Assembly: GCA_964016885.1 (NCBI GenBank)
Contig: OZ024741.1
Location: 10,106,001 to 10,170,000 of the forward strand
Length of the DNA stretch: 64,000 nt
From: Eledone cirrhosa
Lineage: Eukaryota
Direction: 5' to 3'
Notes under the pieces: generated by a model
Databases searched by the model: none
What the model saw: the letters and a program-made list of their open reading frames with translations, nothing else
What the model was told of the DNA's origin: nothing
Position numbers and translations under genes: made by a program
In this document: positions 32,623-58,040 of the stretch, piece by piece
Layout: each line of letters opens with the position of its first letter
Position numbering within the stretch: position 1 is the stretch's first letter

Positions 32623-32718
32623 CTAGACATAACAAATCTTCCTTTTCATGTTATTATTAGGTAGCTAGACAGGTCAGTATATATGGATTACTCTCTCTCT
32701 CTATATATATATGTATAT

Positions 32719-32907
32719 AATTGTTTCTACTTTTGGCACAAGGCCAGCAATTACCCCAGTGTATTACTGGTACTTTATTTTATCTACCCCGTAAGGATGA
32801 AAGGCAAAGTTAACCTCGGCAGGAATTGAACTCAGACTGTAAAGGGCCGTAACTATGCTGGAAAGCATGGCGTCCAACCTTCTACCGATACTGCCAATCC
32901 ACCGCCC
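32719..32907 (-). mobile_element. Full-length Meta-like SINE
   Basis: Reverse complement of 3332-3520. Confidence 0.88.
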
Positions 32908-32945
32908 TAAGTATAATAATAATATAATAATATAATAATAATAAT

Positions 32946-33250
32946 GATTTCTTTATTGGCCACAATGGCTGACATCAAGAAAAACATCACAGACAGAACA
33001 GGACGGTACGATGTGGGTTTTGTGCGTGTAAATATTTTTATTATTTATATAAGAAAAGAAAAAAAGACATAAAACATATATATATAAACAATAAAATGAA
33101 AATTGAAACAGTGAAAAATTCCCCAATAGGGCGGAAACCTCCGAGGGTTACTCGTGGCGAAAACCACACAAAAGACCACGGCCACCCTGACAACCAGGGC
33201 AAGCGCCCTCTCTCAATTTTTCCATCTCTCAAACTACAGACGTATATTCA
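32946..33250 (-). mobile_element. Short 3' fragment of another Tx1 subfamily (copy B) with (ATT)-like tail
   Basis: rc ends CCATTGTGGCCAATAAAGAAATC-ATTATT; homologous to the 3' UTR of copies C-E. Confidence 0.8.
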
Positions 33251-33509
33251 GAATAATAATAATGCTTTCTTTATTAACCACAAGGGTTTACATAAAGTAG
33301 ACATTAAGGACAGTACATTACAATAGAAGACGGTACAAATGGGCATTTCTGCGTGTAAAAAAACCAGAGGATGTAATAAAAATAACAATGAAAAATTCCC
33401 CAATAGGGGGGGAGACTTCCGAAGGACATTTGTGGAGAAAGCCCATTAAAAGGCCACAGTGACTCCGACCACCAGGGCAAGTGCCCTCTCCCAGTTTTCC
33501 ACCTTTAAT

Positions 33510-36500
33510 TTAAAGACACATGCTAAGAGTAGGCCCATTCACTCGGGCCATACTTGCTTCTCTCACCCATCTTTCAACAAAATGCTAGGAAGAGAGCACT
33601 TCCCTCTCTACCCTGATTATTCCTTTTCAAATGAAATTTGAAAAGGTTAATCAAGGCATCACCGAAGAGGTAAGTGCTCGTCTTCAGCCCTTTCAAACGT
33701 GTCCACCATACTATCTATTTCACCATGGCCACCAGACAGATAAAAACTGCCTGCCCTTCCCGGCTAAACAAGAGGGCGGGGCAATCCTCACGATGGACTC
33801 AGCTGATAGCTGGATCCGTCCTACACGTGACAACAGGTGTTCGACATAAACCCACAAGTCAGCAATGCTTGGACACTGGACGAGTGCGTGCAGGACGGTT
33901 TCGTCACCCTGCGCGCATCTCGGACATGCCCGGCTGACGGCACCTCAATGCCTGTAGAGTTTATCCCGAACTGGAGAAGCTCCTCGGTAGCACTGCCAGG
34001 CCTGGGATTTCTGGAAGTTGGCCATAGGCCCCGGCTCGAAAGTCGTTCCGAAGAGATTGGCTAGTTGATTTTCGTCGATACCTAGAGTTTCTCCAAGTAC
34101 GTTGTCGCTCTTCCCCTCCACTAATCCTCTATAGAACACCAAGGTGGAGTTTCCACCGATCACATTGCCTGATTGGTCGAGGGCTGTGAGCGCCTGAAGA
34201 CATTCCAGTCTCCAAGCGCTCCCTCTCGGTCTTCGCTTGACCCAGGACTGCAGCTCCGTCAAGGAGACGAGCAGGGAAAGACGTGTCTAGCAAACGCCGA
34301 CCACACCTGATCACAGTCGAGGAAGAGGTGGAGATGTCGTAGCCTGAGCGCGTGTCTGCGCATCATCAGCCACGGCATGCCCAGCCCTCCACGTAGCGGG
34401 TGTTGACAGCAGATGGACCGCCTGACCATCGGAGCACATCCCTTCCACAAAAAGCGAAAGAGCAAACGCTCCAGCGCAGTCAGGCGGGGCTTAGAACAAG
34501 GTACGACGGTCAGGCGGTAGTAGATGACAGACGCGATGTACGCGTTGGCCACCTCCGCTCGACCTTTCAGGGATAGCTTCCTCTCCGCCTATTTCTGGGT
34601 GAGAGAAGCCACCCTGCTCGTCACCTTGTCCCAGTTTTTGTCCGTCTGGAGGTCCGGACCGAACCAGACCCCTAGCAATTTAACCGGTCCATCCGTCCAG
34701 CGCCCGACGATGCTGTTGGACGGCATGGACCTGCCTCTCCAGGTGCCGAGCTGCAGGCCCACTGACTTTTCCTCGTTGATCATTGCTCCTGTCACCGCTT
34801 CGTATTCTCTTAGTGTAGTGCGATCGCCTCGATGTGTTTGGCGTTCGACACCACTACGGTGACATCGTCCGCATATTTTGACACGGATCTTCCGCATCCT
34901 AGTTCGCGCGGTACCCCCTCAACGTCTCCAGTTTGTGCAGTAATGGCTCGAGAGTCAATACGTACAAGAGGGACGAGAGGGGACATCCTTGGCGGACCGA
35001 GAGCATGATGTTGAACGGTTCCGAAACGTCACCGTTCACTCTCACCATAGAGCAGATGTCGCTGTGCATGGCAGCGATCCAGCCTCTGAAGACGGGCCCA
35101 AATCCAGCCGCCCTCAGGACTGCCGCTAGGTAACGATGGTCGACACTATCGAAAGCTTTCGACTGATCTAAATTGATCAAGGACCCACCCGTGCCAGGTT
35201 CCCTAGCTACACTCTCTACAATGTATCGCATGAGGTGGAGGTTGTCGTGGATGGATCTGTCGGGAATGGCGCACGTCTGCGCCTCTCCCACCAGACCACC
35301 AACGACAAGCGCCAACCTCTTTGCTAGCACCTTGGCCAAAATCTTGAACGCTGTGTTTAGCAGAGTTATGGGCCGGAAATTATCTATGTTATCCCCCTGG
35401 TTCGGATCCTTTCTCAGCAGCGCCACAGCTCCTCGGCTCACAGAGCTGGGAATTCTCCCGTTCTGTTGCCAGTTGCAGTAGACGTCCGCCAAGAGGCCTC
35501 CGAACAAGTCTGGCATCTGTACGTAAAGTTCATAGGGCAGACCATCCAAACCAGGCGATTTACCCCTTGTGCAGCCAGTCATTCCCTCCAGTACTTCAGC
35601 GGCTGTTATCGGCTTTTCGAAACACTCCGCCTCAGTGGCCGAGAGCCGCGGCAGTTCGTCGAGGTAGACATTAAAGTCCATCCCTCGACCCGGCCCACCG
35701 CTTCCCCCGAACAGCTGTGCGAAGGGTCGCTAAAAAGCTTCACACATTTTCCCGAGATCGAGTAGCATGCGCCAGTCGTGGTCCACCAAAGACCGGATCG
35801 TGGCTTTGTTTCCACGACGCGCCTCCGCCACTCAGGCCCATTGAACGGCTTTCGTCCCCTCGTGTCTGAGAGCACGCACGCTAGCTCTGACAACGCAGCC
35901 TTCGTGCTTTGCATTGAAGAATTGGTCAAGGGCCAATTTCGCCGCAAGCACGTCGATCGCAATGCCTTTGCTAAGCGCCTGGTCTAATTTTCTAACTAGT
36001 TCTCCCTCTGCTCTATTTTTCTCTATTGCTAAAGCCTTACTAAACCTAATGGACTCTATTCTAATTGCTCTTTTCAGAGCAAACCACCACTTGTTGTTGA
36101 CGATGGCCCCCGTCAACGCCCGCTTAACTAGTTTGCTAATCCGGTCTCTGTAGGCCTTGCGCGCTGGTAAGGACGCGTTTAGCTTCCAGTAGCCGGGACC
36201 TCGTCTATGAAGCCTATCTAAGTCAAGCACACAGATCACGAATTTGTGGTCCGTGTAGCTGACTATCTTGAATTGTGGACAGCCTATGCTAGACCTATCT
36301 ATTTCCCTACAAAATACTCTATCTAGATATGATCTGGATGACCCTATACGATTTGTCCAAGTCCACATTGGCACATTCGGGAAATCCAATCGGTACCTGT
36401 CAGACAGTTCAAAACGCCTGAGCAGGTTGGTGATGCTCTTGCAGCATCCTCCCCTATCCGCTAATCCCACATAGTCCCAGCGTGGATCTAAAATCCCGTT

Positions 36501-36926
36501 CCAGTCGCCCACTAACACTAAAGAGCGGGACGTTCCAAGAAAGGTCTCCAGACGCCGGAAGAAATCAGGCCGCCCTGCTCCTGTCGGGGCATAGACGGCC
36601 ACTAGCCTGAAAGCTTGCCCGTCTCCGCTGGTCATGTCCAGCACCACCAACTTACCTTCTGGGTCCAGGAAGATGGCCCGTATGGCGAGATCCAAACCTC
36701 TCCGAAAAAGCACAGCAACTCCTCCCCCCGATTCCGGACGGCTGGGAGATGCGTACACATCGTAGCCGCCGAAGATCGGTGCGAAGGCCCGTGCTTCGGA
36801 GATTCTGGTCTCGCTGATGGCCACTACATCTATGTTTAGTGACCTGAGGTCGTTGAGCAGGTGGCCCTGCTTCCATGACGACCCCAAGCCACGCGCATTT
36901 ATGCTGCCTATTCTGAGTGAGGTCGT
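33510..36926 (-). pseudogene. Tx1 ORF2 (APE-RT-CCHC), disrupted; start ATG>ACG
   Basis: Fragments nearly identical to 50515-53934; several stops and frameshifts. Confidence 0.93.
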
Positions 36927-36960
36927 GTTGAAATGGAGTGGATAAGATGGGAAAGACCAC

Positions 36961-38883
36961 TTACTTTACTTCTCGTAGAGGAAGGACGGTTTCTCCATCC
37001 TTTTCACTGCTTGTGGCCTCCTCAGGAAGGATGTCTTTATAAATCCTCATGGAGAGTGCTTGTCGGAAGTCTCCGATGTCTTTAGGGAATTTTTGTTTTA
37101 GTGTCATGTACGTTTTCTGTGTGATGCGAGTGATTTGTATGTGTGGATGTGGTGTGAACTTTTGGGTTGTTGTGTAGTCTTTTTCTGTGATGCTGGTGTT
37201 GTGTTGGATGTAGTCTAATAATTGGTTGTTGTTCAAATTTAATGCTGTGTAGTGTGTATCGTTTTGGTTGTTTTGTTTTGTTTGTGTTTGTTGTTGGTTT
37301 ATTTCTGCTTCGCTTTTTGGTGACTTTTGTGGTGTAGGTGATGGTGGTGTCGGGGTTAATGATGGTGATGGTGTTGGTGTTTGGGGTGATGGGGTTGGTG
37401 ATGCTGGTGTGGATGGTGGCATATATGTCCTAACTTTTTTGTTTAATAGTTTATTTGTTTCCTTCTGTATTTTGTTTTTGGAGGGGGAAGGAAGAGAATT
37501 TTTTCTTTTTTGGTTTCTTTTTTTCTTTTTTCCTGATACCGTTTCCCACTCCTCGTCGTCACAATCTGTCTCCAGTTGTGATAGGCCGTTGAGTGGAAAA
37601 TCCTCCACAGGCGTTAGTTTTGGTTGTGGCGTGGTGGATGGTGTAGGCGCTGGTGCTAGTTCTGGCGCGTTGGGTGGTGGTGGTGTTGGTTTTGCTACTG
37701 TTGCTGGGGTTGTTGCTGCTACAGTTGTTGCTGCCATTTCTGCTGCTAGTGGTGTTGATGGTTGAGTCACTGGGGTGGGTAGGAGAGGTGGCCTCAACCT
37801 TTTAGCCTGAGGGCAAAAAGCCCTTAGGTGGGTTCCTTCACCACAAACGACGCACCTAGACCTTCTGCCCTCGACGATTACGGTGAGGTGGCTGCCGTCA
37901 GTGAGGTCTATTGCCTCTGGGATCTCCTCAATGCTTTTTTAGTCCGCTTGGATCAGGAGCTCCATCCCAGATCCGGACCAGTTCTCCTGCTTTTCTTTCG
38001 CTATTTCGATTATCTTGGTGTTGGCTTCGATGCCGGCGAGGACGGCAGCTATTAGCCAGGGAATTTCGATGGCCGGTGGAACGTGGGTGACCATGATCTT
38101 TACGAGTCTCTGGCCACAATAGCTTGGGACGAGTGTGAAGTCGTCACTTCTTAATGGGGCCATGGAGTGTTCTCTAGCCTCCTCTGGTGTTTCAAAGAAC
38201 ACCTCCACGGTTCCATACTTCTGCACACGTCTGATGTGGGTTTTTTTTGCCCACACATGTCCCAAAGCTTTTGGGATTTGGGACTCGGATGCCCGTTCCA
38301 CTCGGCGCGATTTTATATTAATTGTTCGATAAGACACGGTGCATAGGCGCCGATGCTCCATTTTATTTGAGGGGGGGGGGTGAGGCTGACCCTGTACCCA
38401 TCTTTCTTTACCATTTTTTTAGCTTCTTCTAATTCCTCCTGAGTTACCTGAAATGCACTGTTTTGCTACTCTGGCAAAACTCAGGGTGGTTTTCTTAATG
38501 TCATTGTTGCTGTTGTTGTTGTTATCGTTATTTTTGTTATTATTAATTTTAGTTTCAGTTGTGGTGGTGGTGGCGTCAGTGGTGTTCGGTGTGGAAGAGT
38601 TCATTTTGGTTGAATTCATTTCGATATCACGAGTTAATTTATTTTTTTCTTTTGTTTCTGTTGTCACGGTGGTGTTGGGGATGGTGGTTGTCGCAGTGGT
38701 GGTGGTGGCGGCTTTAACACCTGCAGTCATTGGTAATGGCGGGAAATGTATGTCTGCCTGAGACAAATTAAAAATATTGCGACTGCTTATATTTTTAGTG
38801 TTGGCAAACGTAGTAATATTTACAATGGTGGTGTCGGTGTGAGGTGTTAGTTTGTGAGAAAGGAGTGACTCTGAGTCAGCCAT
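36961..38883 (-). pseudogene. Tx1 ORF1 (zinc-knuckle gag-like), frameshifted, divergent type
   Basis: CTVSYRT..KSRRVERA, LVPSYCGQ, knuckle near 37810-37855, Pro/Thr-rich tail. Confidence 0.85.
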
Positions 38884-39095
38884 GATGTTTCAAAAAAAAC
38901 TTTTGTTTGATAATTATAAAAGTTTAAATTTTGGGCTCAAGGCCCCAATCTTTTTGGGTGTCCTTTTCAGATAACAATGTATGTGCACTGATATACAGTT
39001 AACAATAAAATTTTCCATGAATGGCAATTTTGAACAATTGAAAATAACAAACCTTTGCGGAGCTCACGATGATACGATTTACTACGTAGGTCGCC

Positions 39096-39144
<49 letters not shown>

Positions 39145-39146
<2 letters not shown>

Positions 39147-39670
39147 GTGCAAAGTAAACAATCTACCACATTCTGAGAAATGGTATGAGCATAGGCCAGA
39201 GGCGGTGATGGAGAACAGTCAGGTGAAGGTGCTGTGGGATTTTAGGATACAGACGGACAAAAAACTGGAACACAATAGACCTGACCTGGTGGTTGTGGAC
39301 AAAGAAAAAAGATCGTGCCTGATTGTGGATGTGGCCTGCCCGTTCGACACGAGAGTGCAAGAGAAGGAGAGGGAGAAAATTAACCGATACCAGGACCTAA
39401 AGTGGGAGGTGAAAAGGATTTGGAACTGCCATGAAGTCAAAGTGATCCCGATTGTCATAGGCGCACTGGGGACTATCTCCAAAGGTTTCCAGGGATGGTT
39501 AAAGAAAATCGGCCCCTTCACGCTTTTTGGAACGCTTCAAAAGGCATGCTTGCTTGGAACAGCAAGAACCCTCCGATACGTCCTGAATATCTGAGGCTGC
39601 AGGTAGTGGCTTGATATTCAATCCAACGGACTTTCCAGTTAACCAACATCAATGACTGAGATTCAAGGAA
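39145..39670 (+). mobile_element. R4/Dong-clade non-LTR element, 3' fragment (restriction-like endonuclease), (AAT)n tail
   Basis: WYEHRPE..VLWDFRIQTD..NRPDLVVVD..IVDVACP..K..RYQDL..IPIVIGALG..LQKACLLGTARTLR. Confidence 0.92.
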
Positions 39671-39680
39671 TAACAATAAC

Positions 39681-39741
<61 letters not shown>

Positions 39742-39744
<3 letters not shown>

Positions 39745-39962
39745 GGCGCACTGAGGACTATCTCCAAAAGTTTCCAGGGATGGTTAAAGAAAATCGGCCC
39801 CTTCACGCTTTTTGGAACGCTTCAAAAGGCATGCTTGCTTGGAACAGCAAGAACCCTCCGATACGTCCTGAATATCTGAGGCTGCAGGTAGTGGCTTGAT
39901 ATTCATTCCAACGGACTTTCCAGTTAACCAACATCAATGACTGAGATTCAAGGAATAACAAC

Positions 39963-40053
<91 letters not shown>

Positions 40054-40295
40054 GGCGCACTGAGGACTATCTCCAAAAGTTTCCAGGGATGGTTAAAGAA
40101 AATCGGCCCCTTCACGCTTTTTGGAACGCTTCAAAAGGCATGCTTGCTTGGAACAGCAAGAACCCTCCGATACGTCCTGAATATCTGAGGCTGCAGGTAG
40201 TGGCTTGATATTCATTCCAACGGACTTTCCAGTTAACCAACATCAATGACTGAGATTCAAGGAATAACAACAATAATAATAATAATAATAATAAT
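39742..40295 (+). repeat. Two extra tandem copies of the last ~210 bp of the Dong element, each with an (AAT)n tail
   Basis: 39742-39952 and 40051-40262 match 39458-39668. Confidence 0.93.
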
Positions 40296-40362
40296 ATTAA
40301 TAATGCTTTCTTTATTAACCTACATGTCGGACCTTGTGGCTAATAAATGAAATCATTATTAT

Positions 40363-40530
40363 TATGCTTTCCAGCATAGTTACGTCCCTTTACGATCCGA
40401 GTTCAAATCCCGCCGAGGTTGACTTTGCCTTTCATCCTTACGGGGTCGATAAAATAAAGTACCAGTAATGCACTGGATAATTGCTGGCCTTGTGCCTAAC
40501 GTAGAAACAATTATTATTATTATTATTATT
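40363..40530 (+). mobile_element. 5'-truncated Meta-like SINE with (ATT)n tail
   Basis: Matches 3370-3520. Confidence 0.88.
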
Positions 40531-42188
40531 ACAGTTGCATTTATCTTGCTTTATGTTCATACGAGTTATCACCAAGTCACCACCAGTGACCTCAAGAGAC
40601 AACAAGGTCCGCCATGTTCAAGAAAGAACATACATACTCACACATGCATCTTTAGTGTTTAGACTTGTGATGTACTTATATTGACAGCATCTTCCTTAGG
40701 ATATGGGCAGTTCCCATTAGTACTATCTTTTGTATTTCTCCTATACGCGGGTTTCCTGGGATTTGCGATAAGTAATCATTAGACCCCTTAGGTATCATTC
40801 CCAGAGGGCCTACAACCACTGGTATTGTTTTAGTTTTCAATTTCCACATTTTTCCAATTTCTATCTCCAGGTCCTTATACTTGCTCAATTTTTCAAATGT
40901 TTTTATAGATACATTCTTGTCTATTAGAATAGACATATCAATTAGCAGGCATACCCTCTTTTTAAAGTCCTTCAATATTATATCAGGTCTATTTGCATCT
41001 ATTTTTCGGTCTGTTTGGATGCTAAAGTTCCACAAGATTGAGATGTGATCTTTTTCAAGTATGGGAGGTGGTTGATGCTCCCACCAATTCTTTTGATGGG
41101 GCAGGTCAAAATGCTTACACATTATCTAATGTATGTATTGTGCAGCTCTGTCATGCCTGTTTAGGTATTCGGTTGGAGCTATAGGACTGCACATTGAAAT
41201 TATATGGTCAATGGTCTCTGGTTGTTTTTTGCATACACGGCATAATGGGCTGCATCCATTTTTTATTATGTTGGCTTGGTAATTTTTTGTTGGCAGACAC
41301 TGATCTTGTGCTGATATAATCAGTCCTTCAGTCTCCGATTTCAGTCCAGAGGATGCCAACCACTGATGGGTTAAAGTTTTCTCAACATCAGGATTGTTAG
41401 CTCGCTCTGGGTATTTTCCATACAGAGGCTTTTCTTGCCATTTCTTAGCCAGTTTCTGTAGCAGTTCTTTCTTTGCAGTTACTTTTACTTGCTTTGCTTT
41501 TTCTGTGTTTTCCATTTCAGCAGTAAATGAAACTTCTGAAATTTGTAGTCCATTACTGTATCTTTGTGCATCTTTTGTAATGGAATATGATCTTTTGATG
41601 CTTTCGTGTTTCAAAACGAGTTTGATCATCCAATCATGTGATTCCCTTAGATATGTAGATAATCGAATTGTTGCAGTTTTCAACGCAATGTCTAACTGGA
41701 TTAACCCACGTCCTCCTTCTTTCCTAGGGAGATATATTCTATCTGTATCTGCCTTAGGGTGATGCATTCTGTGCATGGTTAAGAATTTTCTAATTTTTGT
41801 ATCGAGCCTACGGATCTCTGTGCTTGACCAGTTGATAACATTGTAACTGTAGGTTACTACTGGTATGGCAAGCGTGTTTATGGCATCGATCCTATTCCTT
41901 GCATTCAATTCCGTTCTTAAGATTGCTCTTACTCTGCGGTAACATTCCTTCCTTATCCATTCCCTCATTGTCGAGTGCTTGATTCCGTCTCCTTCACAAA
42001 CACCTAGATATTTGTAAATTTTTTCTTGATCAAATTCTCTTATCATGTTCCCCCGATCAAGATTAATGTCTGAACTCTTCAGCAGCTTTCCTCTGGTGAA
42101 CGTTGCTTTGGCGCATTTATCTAGTCCAAACTCCATTTTACTGTCATCACTGAACTGCTCCACAGTGGATAATGGCCCTTGCAATTGT

Positions 42189-42190
<2 letters not shown>
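40531..42190 (-). mobile_element. Second R4/Dong-family element, 5'-truncated (end of RT, CCHC, RLE), one premature stop
   Basis: MEFGLDKCA, YKYLGV, RIYLPRKEGGRGL, CRVCKKQPETIDHIISMC, RHD, RPDIILKD..IDMSI..KYKDL; TAG at 41126-41128. Confidence 0.93.
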
Positions 42191-42229
<39 letters not shown>

Positions 42230-42445
42230 GAATGCTATGGTTGACGGAGGCTCGGCTCTGTAAGGTATTGTAAATTTTGACCGCTATAACAATTGTAAAT
42301 TGTTTAAAACTTTAACCAACTTGTAGACAAAAACACCCTCCTCCTCGTGAAAGGGGTCTTTCTGCCCGTTATTTGGCCCTTCGGGATTAAATAACTACTT
42401 ATTGGGGTTTTGTGCCCAATATTTATTTTAAACAAAAAAAACAAC

Positions 42446-44573: not shown

Positions 44574-44608
44574 GTGGTCTTTCCCATCTTTTCGACTCTA
44601 TATTAAAC

Positions 44609-47600
44609 ATGACCTCACTCAGAATAGGCATCATAAATGCGCGTGGTTTGGGGTCGTCATGGAAGCAGGGTCACCTGCACAACGACCTCAGGTCACTAAA
44701 CATAGATGTAGTGGCCATCAGCGAGACCAGAATCTCCGAAGCACGGGCCTTCGCACCGATCTTCAGCGGCTACGATGTGTACGCATCTCCCAGCCGTCCT
44801 GGATCGGGGGGAGGAGTTGCTGTGCTTTTTCAGAGAGGTTTGGATCTCGCCATACGGGCCATCTTCCTGGACCCAGAGTGTAAGTTGGTGGTGCTGGACG
44901 TGACCAGCGGAGACGGGCAAGCTTTCAGGCTAGTGGCCGTCTATGCCCCGACAGGAGCAGGGCGGCCTGATTTCTTCCGGCGTCTGGAGACCTTTCTTGG
45001 AACGTCCCGCTCTTTAGTGTTAGTGGGCGACTGGAACGGGATCTTAGATGCACGCTGGGACTGTGTGGGATTAGCGGATAAGGGTGGAGGGTGCAAGAGC
45101 CTCACCAAACTGCTCAGGCGTTTTGAACTGTCTGACAAGTACCGATTGGATTTCCCGAATGTGCCAATTTGGACGTGGACAAATCGCATAGGGTCATCCA
45201 GATCATATCTAGATAGAGTATTTTGTAGGGAAATAGATAGGTCTAGCATAGGCTGTCCACAATTCAAGATAGTCAGCTACACGGACCACAAATTCGTGAT
45301 CTGTGTGCTTGACTTAGATAGGCTTCATAGACGAGGACCCGGCTACTGGAAGCTAAACGAGTCCTTACCAGCGCGCAAGGCCTACAGAGACCGGATTAGC
45401 GAACTAGTTAAGCGGGCGTTGACGGAGGCCATCGTCAACAACAAGTGGTGGTTTGCTCTGAAAAGAGCGATTAGAATAGAATCGATTAGGTTTAGTAAGG
45501 CTTTAGCAATAGAGAAAAATAGAGCAGAAGGAGAACTAGTTAGAAAATTAGACGAGGCGCTTAGCAAAGGCATTGCGACCGACGTGCTTGCGGCGAAATT
45601 GGCCCTTGACCAATTCTTCAATGCAAAGCACGAAGGCTGCGTTGTCAGAGCAAGGGTGCTCTCAGACACGAGGGGACGAAAGCCGTTCAATGGGCCCGAG
45701 TGGCGGAGGCGCGTCGTGGCAACAAAGCCAGGATCCGGTCTTTGGTGGACCACGACGGTCGCATGCTACTCGTTCCCGGGCAAATGTGTGAAGCTTTTCA
45801 GCGACACTTCGCACAGCTGTTCGGGGGCAGCGGTGGGCCGAGTCGAGGGATGGACTTTAGTGTCTACCTCGACAGACTGCCGCGGCTCTCGGCCACTGAG
45901 GCGAAGTGTTGCGAAAAGCCGATAACAGCCGCTGAAGTAAGGGAGGCAATGCCTGGCTGCACAAGGGGTAAATCGCCTGGTTTGGATGGTCTGCCCTATG
46001 AACTTTACTTACAGATGCCAGACTTGTTCGGAGGCCTCTTGGCGGACGTCTACTGCAACTGGCAACAGAACGGGAGAATTCCCAGTTCTGTGAGCCGAGG
46101 AGCGGTGGCACTGCTGAGAAAGGATCCGAACAAGGGGGATAATAGATAATTTCCGGCCCATAACTCTGCTGAACACAGAGTTCAAGATTTTGGCCAAGGT
46201 GCTAGCAAACAGGTTGGCGCTTGTCGTTGGTTGTCTGGTGGGAGAGGCGCAGACATGCGCCATTCCCGACAGATCCATCCACGACAACCTCCACCTCATG
46301 CGATACATCGTAGAGAGGGTAGCTAGGGAACCTGGCACGGGTGGGTCGTTGATCAATTTAGATCAGTCGAAAGCTTTCGATAGGGTCGACCATCGTTACC
46401 TAGCGGCAGTCCTGAGGGCGGCTGGCTTTGGGCCCGTCTTCAGAGGCTGGATCGCTGCCATGCACAGCGACATCTGCTCTGTGGTGAGAGTGAACGGTCA
46501 CCTTTCGGAACCGTTCAACATCATGCGCTCGGTCCGCCAAGGATGTCCCCTCTCGTCCCTCTTGTACGTATTGACTATCGAGCCATTACTGCACAAACTG
46601 GAGACGTTGAGGGGCGTCCCGCGCGAACTAGGATGCGGAAGATCCGTGTCAGCATATGCGGACGGTGTCAGCATATGCGGACGATGTCACCGTAGTGGTG
46701 TCGAACGCCAAACACATCGAGGCGATCGGCACTACTCTAAGAGAATACGAAGCGGTGACAGGAGCAATGATCAACGAGGAAAAGTCAGTGGGCCTGAAGC
46801 TCGGCACCTGGAGAGGCAGGTCCATGCCGTCCAACAGCGTCGTCGGACGCTGGACAGACGGACCGGTTAAATTGCTAGGGGTCTGGTTCGGTCCGGACCT
46901 CCAGACGGACAAAAACTGGGACAAGGTGACGAGCAGGGTGGCTTCTCTCACCCAGAAATAGGCGGAGAGGAAGCTATCCCTGAAAGGTCGAGCGGAGGTG
47001 GCTAACGCGTACATCGCATCTGTCATCTGCTACCGCCTGACCGTCGTACCTTGTCCTAAGCCTCGCCTGACTGCGCTGGAGCGTTTGCTCTTTCGCTTTT
47101 TGTGGAAGGGACGCGCTCCGATGGTCATCGGTCCATCTGTTGTCAACACACGCTACGTGGAGGGCTGGGCATGCCGTGGCTGATGATGCGCAGGCACGCA
47201 CTCAGGCTACGACATCTCCTCCTCTTCCTCGACGGTGATCAGGTGTGGTCGCCGTTTGCTAGACACGTATTTCCCCAGCTCGTTTCCTTGACGGAGCTGC
47301 AGACCTGGGTCAAGCGAAGACCGAGAGGGAGCGCCTGCAGACTGGAATGTCTTCAGGCGCTCACAGCCCTCGACCAATCGGGCAATGTGATCGGTGGAAA
47401 CTCCACCTCGGCGTCCTATAGAGGATTAGTGGAGGGGAAGAGCGACGACGTACTTGGGGAAACTCTAGGCGTCGACGAAAATCAACTAGCCAATCTCTTC
47501 GGAAGAACTTTCGGGCCGGGGCCTATGGACAACTTCCAGAAATCTCTGGCCTGGCAGTGCTACCGAGGAGCCGTGCCAGTTCGGGATAAACTCTACAGGC

Positions 47601-47880
47601 ATGGAGGTGCCGTCAGCCGGGCATGTCCGAGATGCGCGCAGGGCGACGAAACCGTCTGGTGGCCATGGCGAAAGAGATAGTATGGTGGACACGTTTGAAA
47701 GGGCTGAAGACGAGCACTTACCTCTTCGGTGATGCTCTGATTGACTTTTTCAAATTTCATTTGAAAAGGAAAATCAGAGTAGAGAGGGAAGTGCTCTCTT
47801 CCCAGCATTTTGTTGAAAGATGGGTGAGAGAAGCAAGAATGGCCCGAGTGAATGGGCCTACTCTGACTATGTGTCTGTAA
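44609..47880 (+). pseudogene. Tx1 ORF2, disrupted (frameshifts, 19-bp duplication at YADD, ~160-bp deletion near 47656)
   Basis: Comparison with the intact copy E. Confidence 0.93.
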
Positions 47881-48325
47881 ATTAAAGGTGGAAAACTGGG
47901 AGAGGGCACTTGCCTTGGTGATCAGGGTCACTGTGGCCTTTTACTGGGCTTTCTCCACAAATGTCCCTCCGAAGTCTCCCCCTATTGGGGAATTTTTCAT
48001 TGTTATTTTTTGTTACATCCTCTGTTTTTGTTTTTTACACGCAGAAATGCCCATTTGTACCGTCCTGTATTGTCCTGCACTGTCCTTAATGTCTACTTTA
48101 TGTAAACCCTTGTGGTTAATAAAGAAATCATTATTATTATTATTATTATTATTGAATGCCATGGTTGACGGAGGCTCGGCTCTGTAAGGTATAGTAATTT
48201 TTAACCGTTAAAACAATTGTAAATTGTTTAAAACTTGAACCAAATTGTTGATAAAGACACCCTCCTCCTCGTGAGAGGGGTCTTTCTGTCCGTTATTTGG
48301 CCCTTCGGGGTTAAATAACCAGTTA

Positions 48326-50479
48326 TTGGGGTTTTGTAACCAAAATTTCATTTTAAGCAAAAAACAACATGGCTACGCTACAAAAAAGAAATTTCATACG
48401 TCACTCCCACTCATTCCGTCTTCTTCTTCCTCAATCATCACTACAGCAGAGAGAAGATTGTCTCTCTCCCTCCCTTCTTTAAATGTGTCTCTCTCCCTCC
48501 CTTCTCTTTCGCAAGTGACGAAAGAAAAGAAAAGTCTCGTGCAAAGCGTGCAAGGTTTCTCCACGACGACGACGACAGCGACGAAACAGGTGTGCGGGAA
48601 ATACGAAAACCCAGTTCATTCGTCTGACGTCAGGAATAATAGCAGTAGCAGCCGTAATAACAACAGCAACAGTGACAATGAAAACAACAGTAGCAGCCGC
48701 AACAGCATCACCAGCAGCATAAACAACAACAGCATTAGCAGCAGCAACACCAACAACAACCACAGCAACAGCGGCGGAGGCAGTAGTCGTAGTACCTGCA
48801 GCAACAACAAAAGTACCAGCAGCTCTGACGACAACAACAACAGCAGAGAAAAACCAATCTCATTTGCAGGTATTGCGAAAAACTTGGAAACAATCCTCAT
48901 AACAAATGAGGAATTAGAGGAAGCGAAGAAGATGGTGACAAAGAACGGACACCGAGCAATCTGCAAGGCAGCGAAAAATTTTTTCGAAACCCAAGAGCAC
49001 TGTACGGTCACGTACCGTACAGTAAGTACAAAATCCCGTAGGGTGGAAAGAGCTACAGAGGCCCAAATACAAAAAGCCTTGGGGTCTGTGTGGCAGAGGA
49101 AAACGCACATCACCCGAGGCAAAAAATACGCCACCGTAGACGTACTTTTTGCCACACCCCAGGAGGCAAAGGCCCAATCAGTAGTGACCCTAAGGAGCGA
49201 GGAAATGGTGTTAGTGCCCTCCTACTGCGGGCAAAAAATTGTGAGGGTCAAACTGACCCACGCCCCCCCCCCCCCCCCCGGAATGACCCCTTCTTGGCTG
49301 GCCGCGTCTGTCCTCGTCGGAATCGAGGACAAAACAACTGTACTGCAAGTACAGAAAAAAGTAAGAGAAGATTGGGTCGGCTCCTCCATTGAGATGCTAA
49401 TCCAAACCAACCAGGAGTGCATCGAAGCTATCCCGGATGTGATAGACTTCGATAACGGCACTCAACTGCCCATAAGTGTTGAGGGCAAACGCCCGAAATG
49501 CTTTCGCTGTGGATCGAAGACTCACCTCAGGGCCTTCTGCAACGAGAAGACCCTGAGAAAGGAGAAAACCCCCCTCCTTCCAAAACCGGCTCCACGGCTA
49601 CCAGCAACAGGACAAGCGGCAACCAGGAACGATAGGTCCGTGGCACCCATACCCACTCCACGGAAATCAAAGACAGCAGCAGCAGTGGAAATATTAACAA
49701 CAACAACAGCAATACCAAATGCAGCTGCAACAGAGACTCCAGTGCAAACATCACCAACAACAACAAGTGAAAGAGTGGAGCTGGTACCCCTCCCCGACCT
49801 TACAGAATCAGACATGGAGTGTGAGGTGGGAGAGGGATGGCAAAAGGTCGCAAGAAGGCACAAACGGAGAAGCAGCGCATCGTCGCCTTTGAAAAGGGAG
49901 GAAAGAAATGAGAAAAGGGTAAAGTCTACTGCAAAGAGACCCACAGCAGCAACACCACCAACACCATCACCACCCACACCAGCACCACCATCACCACCGG
50001 CGACAACCCCACCGCCAACAACACCTTCAACACCACCACCACAAGCACCAACATCGCAAACACAACAACAAAACACACACACCCAGCAACAACGACAAGA
50101 AAATAGCAGAACCACACCCCACCCCCAGAAAAACAAATGCACGGCAATAAACACACACAACAAGAAACTAATGACTTACATAATTGAACACACAGACATT
50201 TCACAACAGGACTACATAATACCAGCACCAATCAAAACGCCAACTAACATAAGACTGCTAAAAATAGCACAGAAACAATACACAAACATTAAAACGAAAT
50301 TCCCCAACGCAGTTGGTGATTTCAGGGACCTAGGAGGAACCATCAATCGAAGAGTATATTCAGACATTCTCTCAGAAGAGCCGACGACCAGCCGAAGGGA
50401 CGATTCAACGGTCCCTTCACCAGACGATCAAGTGAAAAGGGATGTAAAAACCATCCCTCCTCTACCAAAAGTACGGTAA
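48326..50479 (+). CDS. Tx1 ORF1 nucleic-acid-binding protein (CX2CX4HX4C knuckle). The frame is open, but the native ATG (48369) is shifted out; first in-frame ATG is 48932
   Basis: 717-codon open frame; CFRCGSKTHLRAFC; S/N-rich and P/T-rich tracts. Confidence 0.85.
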   Translation: MGFCNQNFILSKKQHGYATKKKFHTSLPLIPSSSSSIITTAERRLSLSLPSLNVSLSLPSLSQVTKEKKSLVQSVQGFSTTTTTATKQVCGKYENPVHSSDVRNNSSSSRNNNSNSDNENNSSSRNSITSSINNNSISSSNTNNNHSNSGGGSSRSTCSNNKSTSSSDDNNNSREKPISFAGIAKNLETILITNEELEEAKKMVTKNGHRAICKAAKNFFETQEHCTVTYRTVSTKSRRVERATEAQIQKALGSVWQRKTHITRGKKYATVDVLFATPQEAKAQSVVTLRSEEMVLVPSYCGQKIVRVKLTHAPPPPPGMTPSWLAASVLVGIEDKTTVLQVQKKVREDWVGSSIEMLIQTNQECIEAIPDVIDFDNGTQLPISVEGKRPKCFRCGSKTHLRAFCNEKTLRKEKTPLLPKPAPRLPATGQAATRNDRSVAPIPTPRKSKTAAAVEILTTTTAIPNAAATETPVQTSPTTTSERVELVPLPDLTESDMECEVGEGWQKVARRHKRRSSASSPLKREERNEKRVKSTAKRPTAATPPTPSPPTPAPPSPPATTPPPTTPSTPPPQAPTSQTQQQNTHTQQQRQENSRTTPHPQKNKCTAINTHNKKLMTYIIEHTDISQQDYIIPAPIKTPTNIRLLKIAQKQYTNIKTKFPNAVGDFRDLGGTINRRVYSDILSEEPTTSRRDDSTVPSPDDQVKRDVKTIPPLPKVR

Positions 50480-50514
50480 GTGGTCTTTCCCATCTTTTCC
50501 ACTCTATTTTAAAC

Positions 50515-53500
50515 ATGACCTCACTCAGAATAGGCAGCATAAATGCGCGTGGCTTGGGTTCGTCATGGAAGCAGGGTCACCTGCTCAACGACCTCAGGTC
50601 ACTAAACATAGATGTAGTGGCCATCAGCGAGACCAGAATCTCCGAAGCACGGGCCTTCGCACCGATCTTCGGCGGCTACGATGTGTACGCATCTCCCAGC
50701 CGTCCTGGATCGGGTGGAGGAGTTGCTGTGCTTTTTCGGAGAGGTTTGGATCTCGCCATACGGGCCATCTTCCTGGACCCAGAGGGTAAGCTGGTGGTGC
50801 TGGACGTGACCAGCGGAGACGGGCAAGCTTTCAGGCTAGTGGCCGTCTATGCCCCCACAGGAGCAGGGCGGCCTGATTTCTTCCGGCGTCTGGAGACCTT
50901 TCTTGGAACGTCCCGCTCTTTAGTGTTAGAGGGCGACTGGAACGGGATCTTAGATGCACGCTGGGACTGTGTGGGATTAGCGGATAGGGGTGGAGGGTGC
51001 AAGAGCCTCACCAACCTGCTCAGGCGTTTTGAACTGTCTGACAGGTACCGATTGGATTTCCCGAATGTGCCAATGTGGACTTGGACAAACCGCATAGGGT
51101 CATCCAGATCATATCTAGATAGAGTATTTTGTAGGGAAATAGATAGGTCTAGCATAGGCTGTCCACAATTCAAGATAGTCAGCTACACGGACCACAAATT
51201 CGTGACCTGTGTGCTTGACTTAGATAGGCTTCATAGACGAGGACCCGGCTACTGGAAGCTAAACGCGTCCTTACCAGCGCGCAAGGCCTACAGAGACCGG
51301 ATTAGCGAACTAGTTAAGCGGGCGTTGACGGGGGCCATCGTCAACAACAAGTGGTGGTTTGCTCTGAAAAGAGCGATTAGAATAGAATCGATTAGGTTTA
51401 GTAAGGCTTTAGCAATAGAGAAAAATAGAGCAGAGGGAGAACTAGTTAGAAAATTAGACGAGGCGCTTAGCAAAGGCATTGCGACCGACGTGCTTGCGGC
51501 GAAATTGGCCCTTGACCAATTCTTCAATGCAAAGCACGAAGGCTGCGTTGTCAGAGCTAGGGTGCGTGCTCTCAGACACGAGGGGACGAAAGCCGTTCAA
51601 TGGGCCCGAGTGGCGGAGGCGCGTCGTGGCAACAAAGCCAGGATCCGGTCTTTGGTGGACCACGACGGGCGCATGCTACTCGATCCCGGGCAAATGTGTG
51701 AAGCTTTTCAGCGACACTTCGCTCAGCTGTTCGGGGGCAGCGGGGGGCCGGGTAGAGGGATGGACTTTAGTGTCTACCTCGACGGACTGCCGCGGCTCTC
51801 GGCCACTGAGGCGAAGTGTTGCGAAAAGCCGATAACAGCCGCTGAAGTACGGGAGGCAATGACTGGCTGCACAAGGGGTAAATCGCCTGGTTTGGATGGT
51901 CTGCCCTATGAACTTTACGTACAGATGCCAGACTTGTTCGGAGGCCTCTTGGCGGACGTCTACTGCAACTGGCAACAGAACGGGAGAATTCCCAGTTCTG
52001 TGAGCCGAGGATCGGTGGCACTGCTGAGAAAGGATCCGAACAAGGGGGATAACATAGACAATTTCCGGCCCATAACTCTGCTAAACACAGAGTTTAAGAT
52101 TTTGGCCAAGGTGCTAGCAAAGAGGTTGGCGCTTGTCGTTGGTGGTCTGGTGGGAGAGGCGCAGACATGCGCCATTCCCGACAGATCCATCCACGACAAC
52201 CTCCACCTCATGCGATACATCGTAGAGAGGGTAGCTAGGGAACCTGGCACGGGTGGGTCCTTGATCAATTTAGATCAGTCGAAAGCTTTCGATAGGGTCG
52301 ACCATCGTTACCTAGCGGCAGTCCTGAGGGCGGCTGGCTTTGGGCCCGTCTTCAGAGGCTGGATCGCTGCCATGCACAGCGACATCTGCTCTGTGGTGAG
52401 AGTGAACGGTCACCTGTCGGAACCGTTCAACATCATGCGCTCGGTCCGCCAAGGATGTCCCCTCTCGTCCCTCTTGTACGTATTGACTCTCGAGCCATTA
52501 CTGCACAAACTGGAGACGTTGAGGGGAGTCCCGCGCGAACTAGGATGCGGAAGATCCGTGTCAGCATATGCGGACGATGTCACCGTAGTGGTGTCGAACG
52601 CCAAACACATCGAGGCGATCGGCACTACACTAAGAGAATACGAAGCTGTGACAGGAGCAATGATCAACCAGGAAAAGTCAGTGGGCCTGCAGCTCGGCAC
52701 CTGGAGAGGCAGGTCCATGCCGTCCAACAGCGTCGTCGGGCGCTGGACGGACGGACCGGTTAAATTGCTAGGGGTCTGGTTCGGTCCGGACCTCCAGACG
52801 GACAAAAACTGGGACGAGGTGACGAGCAGGGTGGCTTCTCTCATCCAGAAATGGGCGGAGAGGAAGCTATCCCTGAAAGGTCGAGCGGAGGTGGCTAACG
52901 CGTACATCGCGTCTGTCATCTGCTACCGCCTAACCGTCGTACCTTGTCCTAAGCCTCGCCTGACTGCGCTGGAGCGTTTGCTCTTTCGCTTTTTGTGGAT
53001 GGGACGTGCTCCGATGGTCAGGCGGTCCATCTGTTGTCAACACCCGCTACGTGGAGGGCTGGGCATGCCGTGGCTGATGATGCGCAGGCACGCGCTCAGG
53101 CTACGACATCTCCACCTCTTCCTCGACGGTGATCAGGTGTGGTCGCCGTTTGCTAGACGCGTTTTTCCCCAGCTCGTTTCCTTGACGGAGCTGCAGTCCT
53201 GGGTCAAGCGAAGACCGAGAGGGAGCGCCTGGAGACTGGAATGTCTTCAGGCGCTCACAGCCCTCGACCAATCGGGCAATGTGATCGGTGGAAACTCCAC
53301 CTCGGCGTTCTATAGAGGATTAGTGGAGGGGAAGAGCGACGACGTACTTGGGGAAACTCTAGGCGTCGACGAAAATCAACTAGCCAATCTCTTCGGAAGA
53401 ACTTTCGGGCCAGGGCCTATGGACAACTTCCAGAAATCTCTGGCCTGGCAGTGCTACCGAGGAGCCTTGCCAGTTCGGGATAAACTCTACAGGCATGGAG

Positions 53501-53934
53501 GTGCCGTCAGCCGGGCATGTCCGAGATGCGCGCAGGGCGACGAAACCGTCCTGCACGCACTCGTCCAGTGTCCGAAAATTGCTGACTTGTGGGTTTATGT
53601 CGAACACCTGCTGTCGCGTTTAGGACGGATCCAGCTATCATCTGAGTCTATCGTGAGGATTGCCCCGCCCTCCTCCTTTAGCCGGGAAGGGCAGGCAGTT
53701 TTTATCTGTCTGGTGGCCATGGCGAAAGAGATAGTATGGTGGACACGTTTGAAAGGGCTGAAGACGAGCACTTACCTCTTCGGTGATGCTCTGATTGACT
53801 TTTTCAAATTTCATTTGAAAAGGAAAATCAGAGTAGAGAAGGAAGTGCTCTCTTCCCAGCATTTTGTTGAAAGATGGGTGAGAGAAGCAAGAATGGCCCG
53901 AGTGAATGGGCCGACTCTGAGTATATATCTGTAA
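50515..53934 (+). CDS. Tx1 ORF2: APE endonuclease, reverse transcriptase, CCHC zinc finger (1139 aa)
   Basis: INARG, SET, GDWN, YLD, TDH; KSPGLDG, RPITLLN, DQSKAFD, RQGCPLS, YADD; CPRC..ETVLHALVQC. Confidence 0.97.
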   Translation: MTSLRIGSINARGLGSSWKQGHLLNDLRSLNIDVVAISETRISEARAFAPIFGGYDVYASPSRPGSGGGVAVLFRRGLDLAIRAIFLDPEGKLVVLDVTSGDGQAFRLVAVYAPTGAGRPDFFRRLETFLGTSRSLVLEGDWNGILDARWDCVGLADRGGGCKSLTNLLRRFELSDRYRLDFPNVPMWTWTNRIGSSRSYLDRVFCREIDRSSIGCPQFKIVSYTDHKFVTCVLDLDRLHRRGPGYWKLNASLPARKAYRDRISELVKRALTGAIVNNKWWFALKRAIRIESIRFSKALAIEKNRAEGELVRKLDEALSKGIATDVLAAKLALDQFFNAKHEGCVVRARVRALRHEGTKAVQWARVAEARRGNKARIRSLVDHDGRMLLDPGQMCEAFQRHFAQLFGGSGGPGRGMDFSVYLDGLPRLSATEAKCCEKPITAAEVREAMTGCTRGKSPGLDGLPYELYVQMPDLFGGLLADVYCNWQQNGRIPSSVSRGSVALLRKDPNKGDNIDNFRPITLLNTEFKILAKVLAKRLALVVGGLVGEAQTCAIPDRSIHDNLHLMRYIVERVAREPGTGGSLINLDQSKAFDRVDHRYLAAVLRAAGFGPVFRGWIAAMHSDICSVVRVNGHLSEPFNIMRSVRQGCPLSSLLYVLTLEPLLHKLETLRGVPRELGCGRSVSAYADDVTVVVSNAKHIEAIGTTLREYEAVTGAMINQEKSVGLQLGTWRGRSMPSNSVVGRWTDGPVKLLGVWFGPDLQTDKNWDEVTSRVASLIQKWAERKLSLKGRAEVANAYIASVICYRLTVVPCPKPRLTALERLLFRFLWMGRAPMVRRSICCQHPLRGGLGMPWLMMRRHALRLRHLHLFLDGDQVWSPFARRVFPQLVSLTELQSWVKRRPRGSAWRLECLQALTALDQSGNVIGGNSTSAFYRGLVEGKSDDVLGETLGVDENQLANLFGRTFGPGPMDNFQKSLAWQCYRGALPVRDKLYRHGGAVSRACPRCAQGDETVLHALVQCPKIADLWVYVEHLLSRLGRIQLSSESIVRIAPPSSFSREGQAVFICLVAMAKEIVWWTRLKGLKTSTYLFGDALIDFFKFHLKRKIRVEKEVLSSQHFVERWVREARMARVNGPTLSIYL

Positions 53935-54182
53935 ACTAAAGGTGGAAAACTGGGAGAGGGCACTTGCCTTGGTGGTCAGGGTCATTGTGGCTTTTTACTG
54001 GGCTTTCTCCACAAATGTCCCTCCGAAGTCTCCCCCCTATTGGGGAATTTTTCATTGTTATTTTTTGTTACATCCTCTGTTTTTGTTTTTTACACGCAGA
54101 AATGCCCATTTGTATCGTCCTGCATTGTCCTGCACTGTCCTTAATGTCTACTTTATGTAAACCCTTGTGGTTAATAAAGAAA

Positions 54183-54241
<59 letters not shown>

Positions 54242-56940: not shown

Positions 56941-56947
<7 letters not shown>

Positions 56948-57354: not shown

Positions 57355-57410
57355 CGAAGGAAATGTGGTAAGGAACCAGGTGGACCATAACGCACCATAT
57401 ATATATATAT

Positions 57411-58011: not shown

Positions 58012-58040
<29 letters not shown>

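Follow-up and report, generated by a model that had tools for sequence, protein, structure and literature searches.

A retrotransposon cluster in ATT/AAT repeats of Eledone cirrhosa as a possible nested insertion hotspot of Tx1-type, SINE and Dong-type elements

Organization of the Retrotransposon Cluster

The analysed window, i.e., the whole stretch of 64,000 nucleotides of the Eledone cirrhosa contig OZ024741.1, contains a retrotransposon cluster at 32717-54232 (21.5 kb), composed of 12 element pieces of three kinds, which represent ~10 insertion events, as the original prediction of about ten insertions over 21 kb had stated. The 11 ATT/AAT tracts found between the pieces comprise 423 of the 21,516 bases, and the pure tracts of at least four units number 11 (393 bp) in the cluster vs. 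7 (99 bp) in the remaining 42 kb. The outer flanks on both sides are (TA)n with CT/AG repeats, and two N gaps, of 100 bp each, are present in the window.

The left end of the cluster is a SINE copy (32717-32911, minus strand; 172/184 to the copy at 3332), which ends in ATTAT followed by an (AT)n/(GA)n flank. An imperfect AAT tract of 34 bp (32912-32945; ATT on the minus strand) separates it from the Tx1-type copy E (32946-33251, minus strand), which is a 3' fragment (306 bp) from a family diverged from B/C/D (66-76%), and (AAT)4 (33252-33263) leads from the 3' end of copy B to the 5' junction of E, located 18 nt 3' of the AATAAA of B. Copy B (33264-39095, minus strand) is apparently full length, with stops and frameshifts. 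Between its 5' end and that of the first Dong-type piece lies (AAT)16 (39096-39143), just as (ATT)13 (42191-42229) lies between the 5' ends of the second Dong-type family and copy C. These two tracts are the best evidence for targeting, because each adjoins two 5' ends and is the tail of neither element. Copy C (42230-48129, plus strand), full length with frameshifts and a 160-bp deletion, is joined by (ATT)8 (48130-48153) from its 3' end to the 5' end of copy D, which is followed by (ATT)16 (54185-54232) and then by the right flank of (AT)n/(AG)n.

The polarity of the tracts switches where the 3' stubs of two Tx1 copies touch, at 40321-40323. These back-to-back stubs form a tract-free pivot (40305-40354), the meeting point of two mirror-image arms: a 16-nt stub (40305-40320, minus strand), identical to the last 16 nt of B, heads the left arm, and a 31-nt Tx1-type 3' stub (40324-40354, plus strand; 26/31 to E) heads the right arm. 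The pivot probably sits within a (TA)n site. The claim that the insertions are separated only by (AAT/ATT)n thus fails at 40321-40323, and one shared tract, in which both clades had been placed, was ruled out for the whole cluster by the two arms. Taken as a whole, the original observation stood as to the cluster, the tracts and the 5' polarity, but not as to the single tract, the three Dong targets and the left SINE tail.

Tx1-Type Copies and the SINE

Copy D (48154-54184, plus strand) is near intact. The reading frame of its ORF1 (48275-50479) contains a CCHC knuckle but is not the frame of the first ATG, while its ORF2 (50515-53934, plus strand; 1,139 aa) is open and encodes an APE endonuclease, a reverse transcriptase and zf-RVT (Pfam PF03372, PF00078 and PF13966), with LINE-1 ORF2p as the best solved-structure match (E 1e-51, catalytic motifs aligned). 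Pfam gave zero matches for the ORF1 of the Tx1-type element, in which the motif C-x2-C-x4-H-x4-C is found and whose Atlas matches are CCHC and ZCCHC3-like clusters at 0.90-0.93. An ORF1 with a CCHC zinc knuckle characterizes the Tx1 clade, as against the coiled-coil ORF1 of L1. The two ORFs, the order APE-RT-C-terminal zinc motif in ORF2 and the CCHC ORF1 agree with this clade; "Tx1" is nevertheless a working label, set by domains, with no named Tx1 reference among the matches or tree rows. The hairpin loop of the D endonuclease has 9 residues between the anchors, vs. 11 in the array-forming relatives described below, the lengths known being 9 for promiscuous L1 and 11 for Tx1L and TRAS1 (PMC1950540). 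The 11-residue loop in the style of Tx1L, a feature of one member and not of the clade, was not found in D, and the loop sequence varies among close relatives (~60-74% identity). The single-sequence structure prediction of the endonuclease (mean pLDDT 39) was set aside, and blastn of the 3' 685 nt of D against plasmids gave no matches.

Copies B, C and D constitute one ORF2 family; B is 95% identical to D in the ORF2 region, while the 5' UTR and ORF1 are different (ORF1 core 52% aa). Judged by its substitutions, D is taken to be a separate, younger retrotransposition behind C, because its private changes (15 synonymous/12 non-synonymous) depart from neutrality (p 0.0005-0.004), those of C (14 synonymous/28 non-synonymous) being neutral and the D-vs-C contrast by itself non-significant (Fisher p 0.08). 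An origin of the C-D pair, which differs at ~5%, by DNA tandem duplication was ruled out by the synonymous excess in D.

The second SINE copy of the cluster (40366-40509, plus strand), 5'-truncated and followed by (ATT)7, has its 5' junction 16-18 nt 3' of the AATAAA of the stub. The SINE label is presumed from the size, the copy number and a likeness to octopus SINEs. For the SINE, no match pointing to a tRNA-derived head with Pol III boxes was found in Rfam, which gave none at gathering level and only sub-threshold ones within the cluster; evidence for a ribozyme or structured RNA is therefore absent from these matches. The SINE and the Tx1-type LINE share the 3'-terminal sequence: the end-anchored, ungapped identity to the B/C/D end is 15/22, a value reached by five non-SINE positions in a scan of ~128,000, four of which are Tx1-type ends, and the end of the relatives contains a 12-nt exact match to the SINE, the maximum in 888 control windows being 9. 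The two elements also match in ATT polarity and in duplication length (17 bp for the SINE and 18 bp for the Tx1-type fragment F, one case each). In the open-access literature, no octopus SINE with a Tx1 element as its partner was found. As to the (ATT)n tails formerly assigned to the SINE, the left copy ends in ATTAT and then (AT)n, while both 5' flanks are ATT.

Dong-Type Pieces

The first Dong-type family is represented by piece a (39144-39680, plus strand), which comprises the restriction-like endonuclease end and the 3' UTR and is followed by (AAT)21; by piece b (39744-39962, plus strand; 219 bp), followed by (AAT)30; and by piece c (40053-40271, plus strand), identical to b (219/219, with the same ATA microhomology start) and either a tandem duplicate or an assembly artefact. 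Since b and c differ from a by three substitutions and a 3-nt gap, and from each other by nothing, the three pieces were rejected as separate target choices and represent at most two events. The second family (40531-42190, minus strand) is a 5'-truncated copy of 1.66 kb in which the RHD motif is followed by a single in-frame stop. Both families are 5'-truncated, share ~41% aa with each other and carry the C-terminal CCHC, RHD and PD..D..K motifs of the Dong/R4 type. R2 proteins are among the matches of a full-length relative, P0045 (E 3e-30), and the named matches are to uncharacterised proteins of coral, shrimp and Anolis, so that the "Dong-type" label stands without a named clade reference. 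The original clade calls agree with the domains of both kinds, i.e., APE-RT-zinc finger in the Tx1-type ORF2 and CCHC, RHD and PD..D..K in the Dong-type elements; the reading of AAT in the Dong copies holds for two of two unrelated elements, the three pieces counting as at most two events.

Standalone Copies and Target-Site Duplications

Three copies lie outside the cluster and have no earlier element end upstream. The Tx1-type 3' fragment F (1311-1591, minus strand; element 1329-1573) is enclosed by an exact 18-bp target-site duplication (1574-1591 and 1311-1328) and has no tail. The standalone SINE (3309-3532, plus strand) is enclosed by an exact 17-bp duplication (3309-3325 and 3516-3532) starting with ATTATT, with neither microsatellite nor tail at its site, C|ATTATT; ATTATT occurs at 69 of 84,988 positions. 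The Tx1-type copy A (16585-18511, minus strand; ~70% nt) has, as originally noted, (TA)n on both sides, so that the copies of related families are found in (TA)n (A) and in a TATC-like site (F). The assumption that each insertion adds a tail is made doubtful by F and the standalone SINE, which run tail-free into their duplications; target renewal by target-site duplication, not by an added tail, is demonstrated in these standalone copies. The self-feeding proposed originally is thus retained in the general sense, with D younger behind C, but not by means of added tails.

Polarity and Target Preference

At the 5' flank, the sense strand reads ATT in all six cases of B, C, D, E and both SINEs (the flank of the left SINE being imperfect), and AAT in both unrelated Dong-type elements. 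The antiparallel arrangement of Tx1/SINE and Dong claimed at the outset is therefore borne out at 8/8 informative 5' junctions, switching with the tract in both arms. The nominal orientation probability, 0.5^8 = 0.004, or ~0.008 with the Tx1 direction left free, overstates the case, because the locus was chosen as odd-looking and neighbours share tracts. Outside the cluster, the positions after three ATT units constitute 57 of 84,518 strand-positions (0.07%), and those of (TA)5 are ~40 times commoner (2,394 of 84,512; 2.8%). The criterion of target preference is that more than 20% of the flanks of a family fall in one sequence type (PMC4494074); here, B, C and D are in ATT in 3/3 cases, plus E, all at one locus.

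Dong elements (Rex6, R4 clade) target TAA repeats (PMC3812793, PMC1635306, PMC3774820), including a snail element (PMC3812793), and the 5' junction of Bombyx Dong has TAA on the sense strand (PMC3774820). The (TAA)n target named in the original prediction is thus a published one, and both families here are inserted in the TAA polarity. Given Dong in this polarity and the proposed Tx1-type nick on the AAT strand, the antiparallel layout is expected and not surprising. Within the open-access literature, the scope of the search, no ATT/AAT target for Tx1 was found, and such a target looks new for a Tx1-type element.

Possible Mechanism and Alternative Explanations

The reading that we favour, with roughly even confidence, is that of a nested insertion hotspot produced by two independent site-preferring systems. 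The APE endonuclease of the Tx1-type element would nick the AAT strand of a short target whose top strand reads C|ATTAT(T), and the free AAT 3' end would prime on RNA read through into the AUU repeat flanking the donor. A second cut ~17-18 bp downstream, as displayed by the standalone copies and presumed for those within tracts, would duplicate several ATT units. Ending in C, the element would rebuild the target site at its own 3' end; because C|ATTAT would be regenerated there, new Tx1 copies and the SINE with the common 3' end could chain head to tail, with slippage lengthening the tracts. The Dong-type elements, whose target is established, would prime from the other strand, with TAA on the sense strand, as antiparallel secondary colonisers. 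The cluster may have been founded by two opposed Tx1 3' ends in strand-symmetric (TA)n, from which the mirror-image arms would have grown. In favour of this reading are the 8/8 polarity, which switches with the tract in both arms; the use of ATT in spite of the ~40 times commoner (TA)n outside the cluster; the standalone SINE at C|ATTATT; the exact 18- and 17-bp duplications; the separate retrotransposition of D; the (TA)n of the two outer flanks; and the published TAA target and polarity of Dong. The earlier interpretation agrees with this in the clade calls, the polarity and the general self-feeding, but not in the added tails, and it contained neither the pivot, nor the shared SINE-Tx1 end, nor self-end recognition.

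Several observations weigh against the ATT-site explanation. It concerns one locus, chosen for its oddness, in which B, C and D belong to a single ORF2 family; of the related copies, A is located in (TA)n and F in a TATC-like site. Two tracts, of 11 and 12 bp, have no room for a duplication of 17-18 bp unless the tract contracted or the duplication was shorter. In the nearest array-forming relatives, all 47 junctions lack an ATT tract. The D-vs-C contrast alone has a Fisher p of 0.08, and the 9-residue endonuclease loop resembles that of promiscuous L1.

The relatives in question, with 41% ORF2 identity, form microsatellite-free head-to-tail arrays in one eukaryotic record and are sister to the group of D with a support of 1.0 (FastTree; 417 RT columns, 28 rows, all unnamed). 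An ATT tract was found at 0 of their 47 array junctions and two units at 1; of six junctions closely examined, two, with 5'-truncated copies (L012; L013/L008), join 17-18 nt after the prior AATAAA. Their spacer had no match in Rfam, and a covarying second hairpin at their 3' end, seen by eye, was rejected, with RNAalifold giving a 5-pair stem and a covariation term of ~0. These arrays make a serious rival of self-end targeting, in which the Tx1 lineage would insert behind the 3' end of an earlier copy (CCTYGTG...AATAAA), always at the same distance, with ATT as a spacer carried by duplication or read-through and exploited later by Dong; we regard this as possible, though rather doubtful. A spacing of 16-18 nt recurs at two of the four uninterrupted cluster junctions, that of C-D exceeding it by exactly four ATT units and that of E-SINE being ~40 nt, and, Dong set aside, 6/6 Tx1/SINE 5' ends (pivot stubs excepted) stand behind a same-direction Tx1-type/SINE 3' end. 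However, the standalone SINE, F and A inserted with no element end upstream, the duplication of F starts 6 nt after AATAAA, so that a spacing of 23-24 nt and not of 18 nt would be predicted, and the arrays, known from one record, may be partly due to unequal crossover. In a broader version, proposed just as tentatively, the Tx1-type lineage would target the 3' ends of those copies of its own that had inserted before, building pure head-to-tail arrays elsewhere, and in octopods an (ATT)n spacer would seed and propagate ATT microsatellites, then colonised by Dong on the other strand and, in the same direction, by the SINE with a captured 3' recognition motif, with ORF1/5' UTR modules swapped freely on a conserved ORF2.

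Relaxed nicking combined with RNA-primer pairing, whereby any TAT/ATA-rich DNA would be cut and only the sites pairing with the read-through tail of the donor would be used, the target being inherited from the donor flank, seems unlikely, although all Tx1-type/SINE 3' junctions register on TAT (A TATA; F TATC; B-E and SINE TATT), the loop of D has the L1 length, the AATAAA 6 nt before the end means that the transcript would enter the flank, and RNA-target annealing at initiation has been proposed for SART1 (PMC7265360). The loops differ among the ~60-74%-identical relatives as if the enzyme preferences differed, and the duplication of the standalone SINE contains no extra units, which would demand pairing in exact register. 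Passive accumulation or artefact, i.e., broad insertion with repeat tails in a tolerated region, tandem duplication or assembly error, is very improbable: the identical tandem units b and c of Dong, the two N gaps and the commonness of TE hotspots in Octopus vulgaris (PMC13282606) would fit it, but not the insertions within tracts of 11-90 bp, two of which are nobody's tail, the selected signature in C and D at ~5% divergence, or the consistent polarity.

Comparison with Known Systems

The favoured hotspot of two site-preferring systems resembles R1 and R2 in 28S rDNA, where APE and restriction-like elements also use one repeated target, although at distinct fixed sites in a gene, in the same orientation and with insertions that do not renew the target. 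In the telomeric (TTAGG)n of Bombyx mori, SART and TRAS are inserted in opposite orientations (PMC10088271, PMC7265360), likewise two array-building families in one repeat; both, however, belong to the R1 clade of APE elements and have poly(A), whereas here an APE and a restriction-like system meet in an interstitial microsatellite without poly(A). The Tx1 families Kibi, Koshi and those of crocodilians, similarly L1-group APE-RT elements preferring a microsatellite, target TC, TTC and TTCC/TTTC (PMC4494074), while the target here is ATT, related families occupying (TA)n or TATC-like sites. The Dong-type element itself, with its restriction-like endonuclease and a sense strand that reads AAT/TAA at either end, as in the known Dong including the mollusc DongBg, is nothing new; here, two such families lie in tracts flanked by Tx1-type elements and the SINE.

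Common 3' ends are known for SINE/LINE pairs, the 2013 review counting only three SINEs with L1-clade tails (PMC3747384), and the case for the mobilisation of SINEU by Tx1-Mar was built on targets, ages and 5' heads common to the two (PMC4494074); the SINE described here similarly has the target and the terminal sequence of the LINE. New here are the ATT target, the SINE sharing the Tx1 3' end and the microsatellite-free arrays of 41%-identical relatives. How APE elements target microsatellites is described as poorly understood (PMC3812793), and the locus offers a near-intact element with open ORF2, controls with 17-18-bp duplications and sister families with other flanks, by means of which enzyme choice, RNA pairing and self-end recognition can be tested directly. 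Given genome-wide confirmation, ATT would join the list of Tx1 targets, a cephalopod SINE would gain its likely LINE partner, and retrotransposition would be tied to microsatellite growth in a group with recent Tx1 and Dong activity, as recorded for O. vulgaris with 421 Tx1 and 1,129 Dong insertions (PMC13282606).

Organization of the cluster

Self-comparison and the reading of junctions resolved the cluster (32717-54232) into 12 element pieces arranged as two arms. From the centre outwards, the left arm carries on the minus strand a 16-nt Tx1-type 3' stub identical to the end of copy B, three Dong-type pieces in antisense (family 1, 39144-40271), the Tx1-type copies B (33264-39095) and E, a SINE and (AT)n, and the right arm, on the plus strand, carries a 31-nt stub, a 5'-truncated SINE, an antisense Dong-type element of family 2 (40531-42190), the Tx1-type copies C (42230-48129) and D (48154-54184), (ATT)16 and (AT)n. 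ATT is read at all six Tx1-type and SINE 5' flanks and AAT at both Dong-family 5' flanks; the antiparallel arrangement of the original prediction holds, and the polarity is explained by the strand choice of each family. Since the rule reverses from one arm to the other, it speaks against a strand bias fixed at this locus. Two of the tracts are each bounded by two 5' ends and, therefore, cannot be tails.

The hotspot is real; however, its insertions had been described as parted solely by (AAT/ATT)n, and the two stubs of the pivot (40305-40354) meet at 40321-40323 without a tract, at the very point where the polarity of the tracts reverses. The stubs could represent two very short insertions, or could mark the tips of an inverted pair that has collapsed; they may end at homologous positions, as expected of such a pair. 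The opposite tracts on either side suggest the arrival of at least one of these tracts through RNA or an inversion. A 6-bp palindrome lies at the meeting point (40321-40328). Both outer flanks of the cluster consist of (TA)n together with CT/AG repeats, and the site ancestral to it was therefore probably a (TA)n array symmetric between the strands. As had been noted, the divergent copy A (16585-18511) also lies in (TA)n, which was found on both its sides. The window as a whole is animal-like in character and abounds in simple repeats; a 32-bp tandem repeat of about 221 copies (20733-27919) is followed by AC-rich repeats to about 32600, adjoining the left edge of the cluster.

Identity and age of the elements

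The ORF2 of D (50515-53934) is open over 1,139 aa, with the APE, RT and zf-RVT domains; its top solved-structure match is LINE-1 ORF2p, and its closest named match, one of 21, comes from Argonauta hians (58%). A CCHC knuckle is present in its ORF1, which is similar to CCHC and ZCCHC3-like clusters; together these features fit Tx1, the label being provisional. The Dong-type elements contain CCHC, RHD and PD..D..K motifs, a full-length relative matches R2 proteins, and families 1 and 2 share only about 41% identity. The cluster SINE is presumably similar to octopus SINEs. In Octopus vulgaris, recent activity is reported for L1-Tx1 as well as for Dong-R4 (PMC13282606), and the host here is probably an octopod.

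From 50431 onward B is 95% identical to D, but its 5' UTR is different and the core of its ORF1 is 52% identical; the switch between B and C/D is situated about 85 bp ahead of the start of ORF2 (39095-37009 versus 48154-50430). Over 3,576 aligned columns the private changes number 34 in D, 46 in C and 121 in B. Because the synonymous share in the ORF2 of D (15 synonymous, 12 non-synonymous) exceeds the neutral 24-29% (p 0.0005-0.004), the substitutions indicate that D derives from an active lineage with an origin independent of C, for which the counts are 14 and 28 (direct contrast of D with C, p 0.08). D is probably younger than C and inserted into the tract behind it; at a rate quoted in PMC13282606, with the host assumed, both would be roughly a few million years old at most.

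Over its last 22 nt the SINE agrees with B, C and D at 15 positions, ungapped and end-anchored, in a comparison made after the likeness had been noticed; among about 128,000 positions, five outside the SINEs reach 15, four of them Tx1-type ends, and the Dong ends score 4-5. The SINE end also shares a 12-nt exact match with the ends of distant relatives, against a control maximum of 9 (888 windows). SINEs with L1-clade tails numbered only three in a 2013 review (PMC3747384). A fourth SINE copy (14707-14823, minus strand), truncated at both ends, runs into (TA)10 and lacks the terminal AGAAAC motif. A second, presumably SINE-like or tRNA-like head, belonging to another family, lies at 61570-61720.

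Array-forming relatives

One scan of genome contigs yielded at least 43 loci, from the best 80 of 95 stretches, 41 of which lie on 16 eukaryote-like contigs within a single bacterial MAG record (CAXXMW01), probably eukaryotic contamination. These loci (L001-L038, L041-L043) form long head-to-tail arrays with a period of 6.4-6.8 kb, mostly of open full-length Tx1-type elements, whose ORF2 is 41% identical to that of D and, in a tree of 28 rows, sister to D plus P0001 (support 1.0). The end motif recognized 47 distinct junctions on 15 of these 16 contigs, with the loci of contig 4 unmatched and uncounted; an ATT tract was present at none of the 47 and two units at one. Several ORF1 types of about 37-70% identity are carried on ORF2s of 91-100% identity, as in L007 and L013 (ORF1 62%, ORF2 99.9%), which is the same swap as in B. 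In a distant relative (L039, 28%), the 5' end bears a complete U1 snRNA gene, and downstream an A-run adjoins part of a second U1 gene (3036-3199 and 9961-10137), so that the element seems either to target U1 or to carry a U1 head.

Target choice and its alternatives

The Tx1-type 3' fragment F (1329-1573, minus strand; 1311-1591 with its duplication), which the original prediction does not list, lies at a TATC/TA-rich site and is followed, from 6 nt behind AATAAA, by one copy of an exact 18-bp duplication; the standalone SINE (3309-3532, plus strand), in unique sequence, has an exact 17-bp duplication beginning with ATTATT. Neither has a tail; thus, about six ATT units duplicated per insertion would be enough to renew the target, and of the proposed self-feeding by added tails the renewal is supported in general terms and the tails are doubtful. 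Two tracts of 11 and 12 bp count against a fixed duplication of 17-18 bp. We would give about an even chance to a mechanism in which the AAT strand would be nicked at a C|ATTAT site, priming would take place on read-through AUU, the target would be restored through duplication, and the cluster would have been seeded in (TA)n.

The main rival is insertion behind the 3' end of an earlier copy, owing to the microsatellite-free arrays of the relatives and to a shared junction spacing: 17-18 nt behind AATAAA at truncated-copy junctions (two of the six array junctions examined) and 16-18 nt at two of the four uninterrupted junctions of the window. However, the three standalone copies in the window lack an upstream element end, and unequal crossover may have contributed to the arrays; we consider this explanation rather unlikely. 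Relaxed nicking with pairing of the RNA seems more doubtful still. The endonuclease is established as the main determinant of site choice (PMC4494074, PMC7265360). The hairpin loop of the D endonuclease has nine residues, the length in L1 (reference lengths from PMC1950540), which tells slightly against a strictly specific enzyme. Passive accumulation or an artefact is highly improbable. Outside the cluster three ATT units lie upstream of 57 of 84,518 positions and (TA)5 upstream of 2,394 of 84,512. The case against chance, from these counts and from the polarity of the flanks, is limited by the selected site, the shared tracts, the identity of Dong pieces b and c and the single ORF2 family of B, C and D.

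For Dong, the TAA target and the polarity are established (PMC3812793, PMC3774820, PMC1635306). Known microsatellite targets of Tx1 families include TC, TTC, TTCC and TTTC (PMC4494074), in contrast to ATT here, and opposite insertion in one repeat, as here, is already described for SART and TRAS (PMC10088271). A search of an open-access library found no ATT-targeting Tx1, no self-arraying Tx1 and no account of LINE targets in cephalopods.

Other features of the window

Several near-perfect palindromes and inverted repeats, which are MITE-like or fold-back elements, are located at 1671-1842, 4917-5289, 18632-19018, 56941-57250, 57397-57585 and 58035-58209; many have (TA)n at their borders. A single run of 200 N (14885-15084) marks an assembly gap. 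A repeated element unrelated to those of the cluster (10421-10661 and 58099-58318, 86% identical) ends with (TTA)4 followed by (TA)n.
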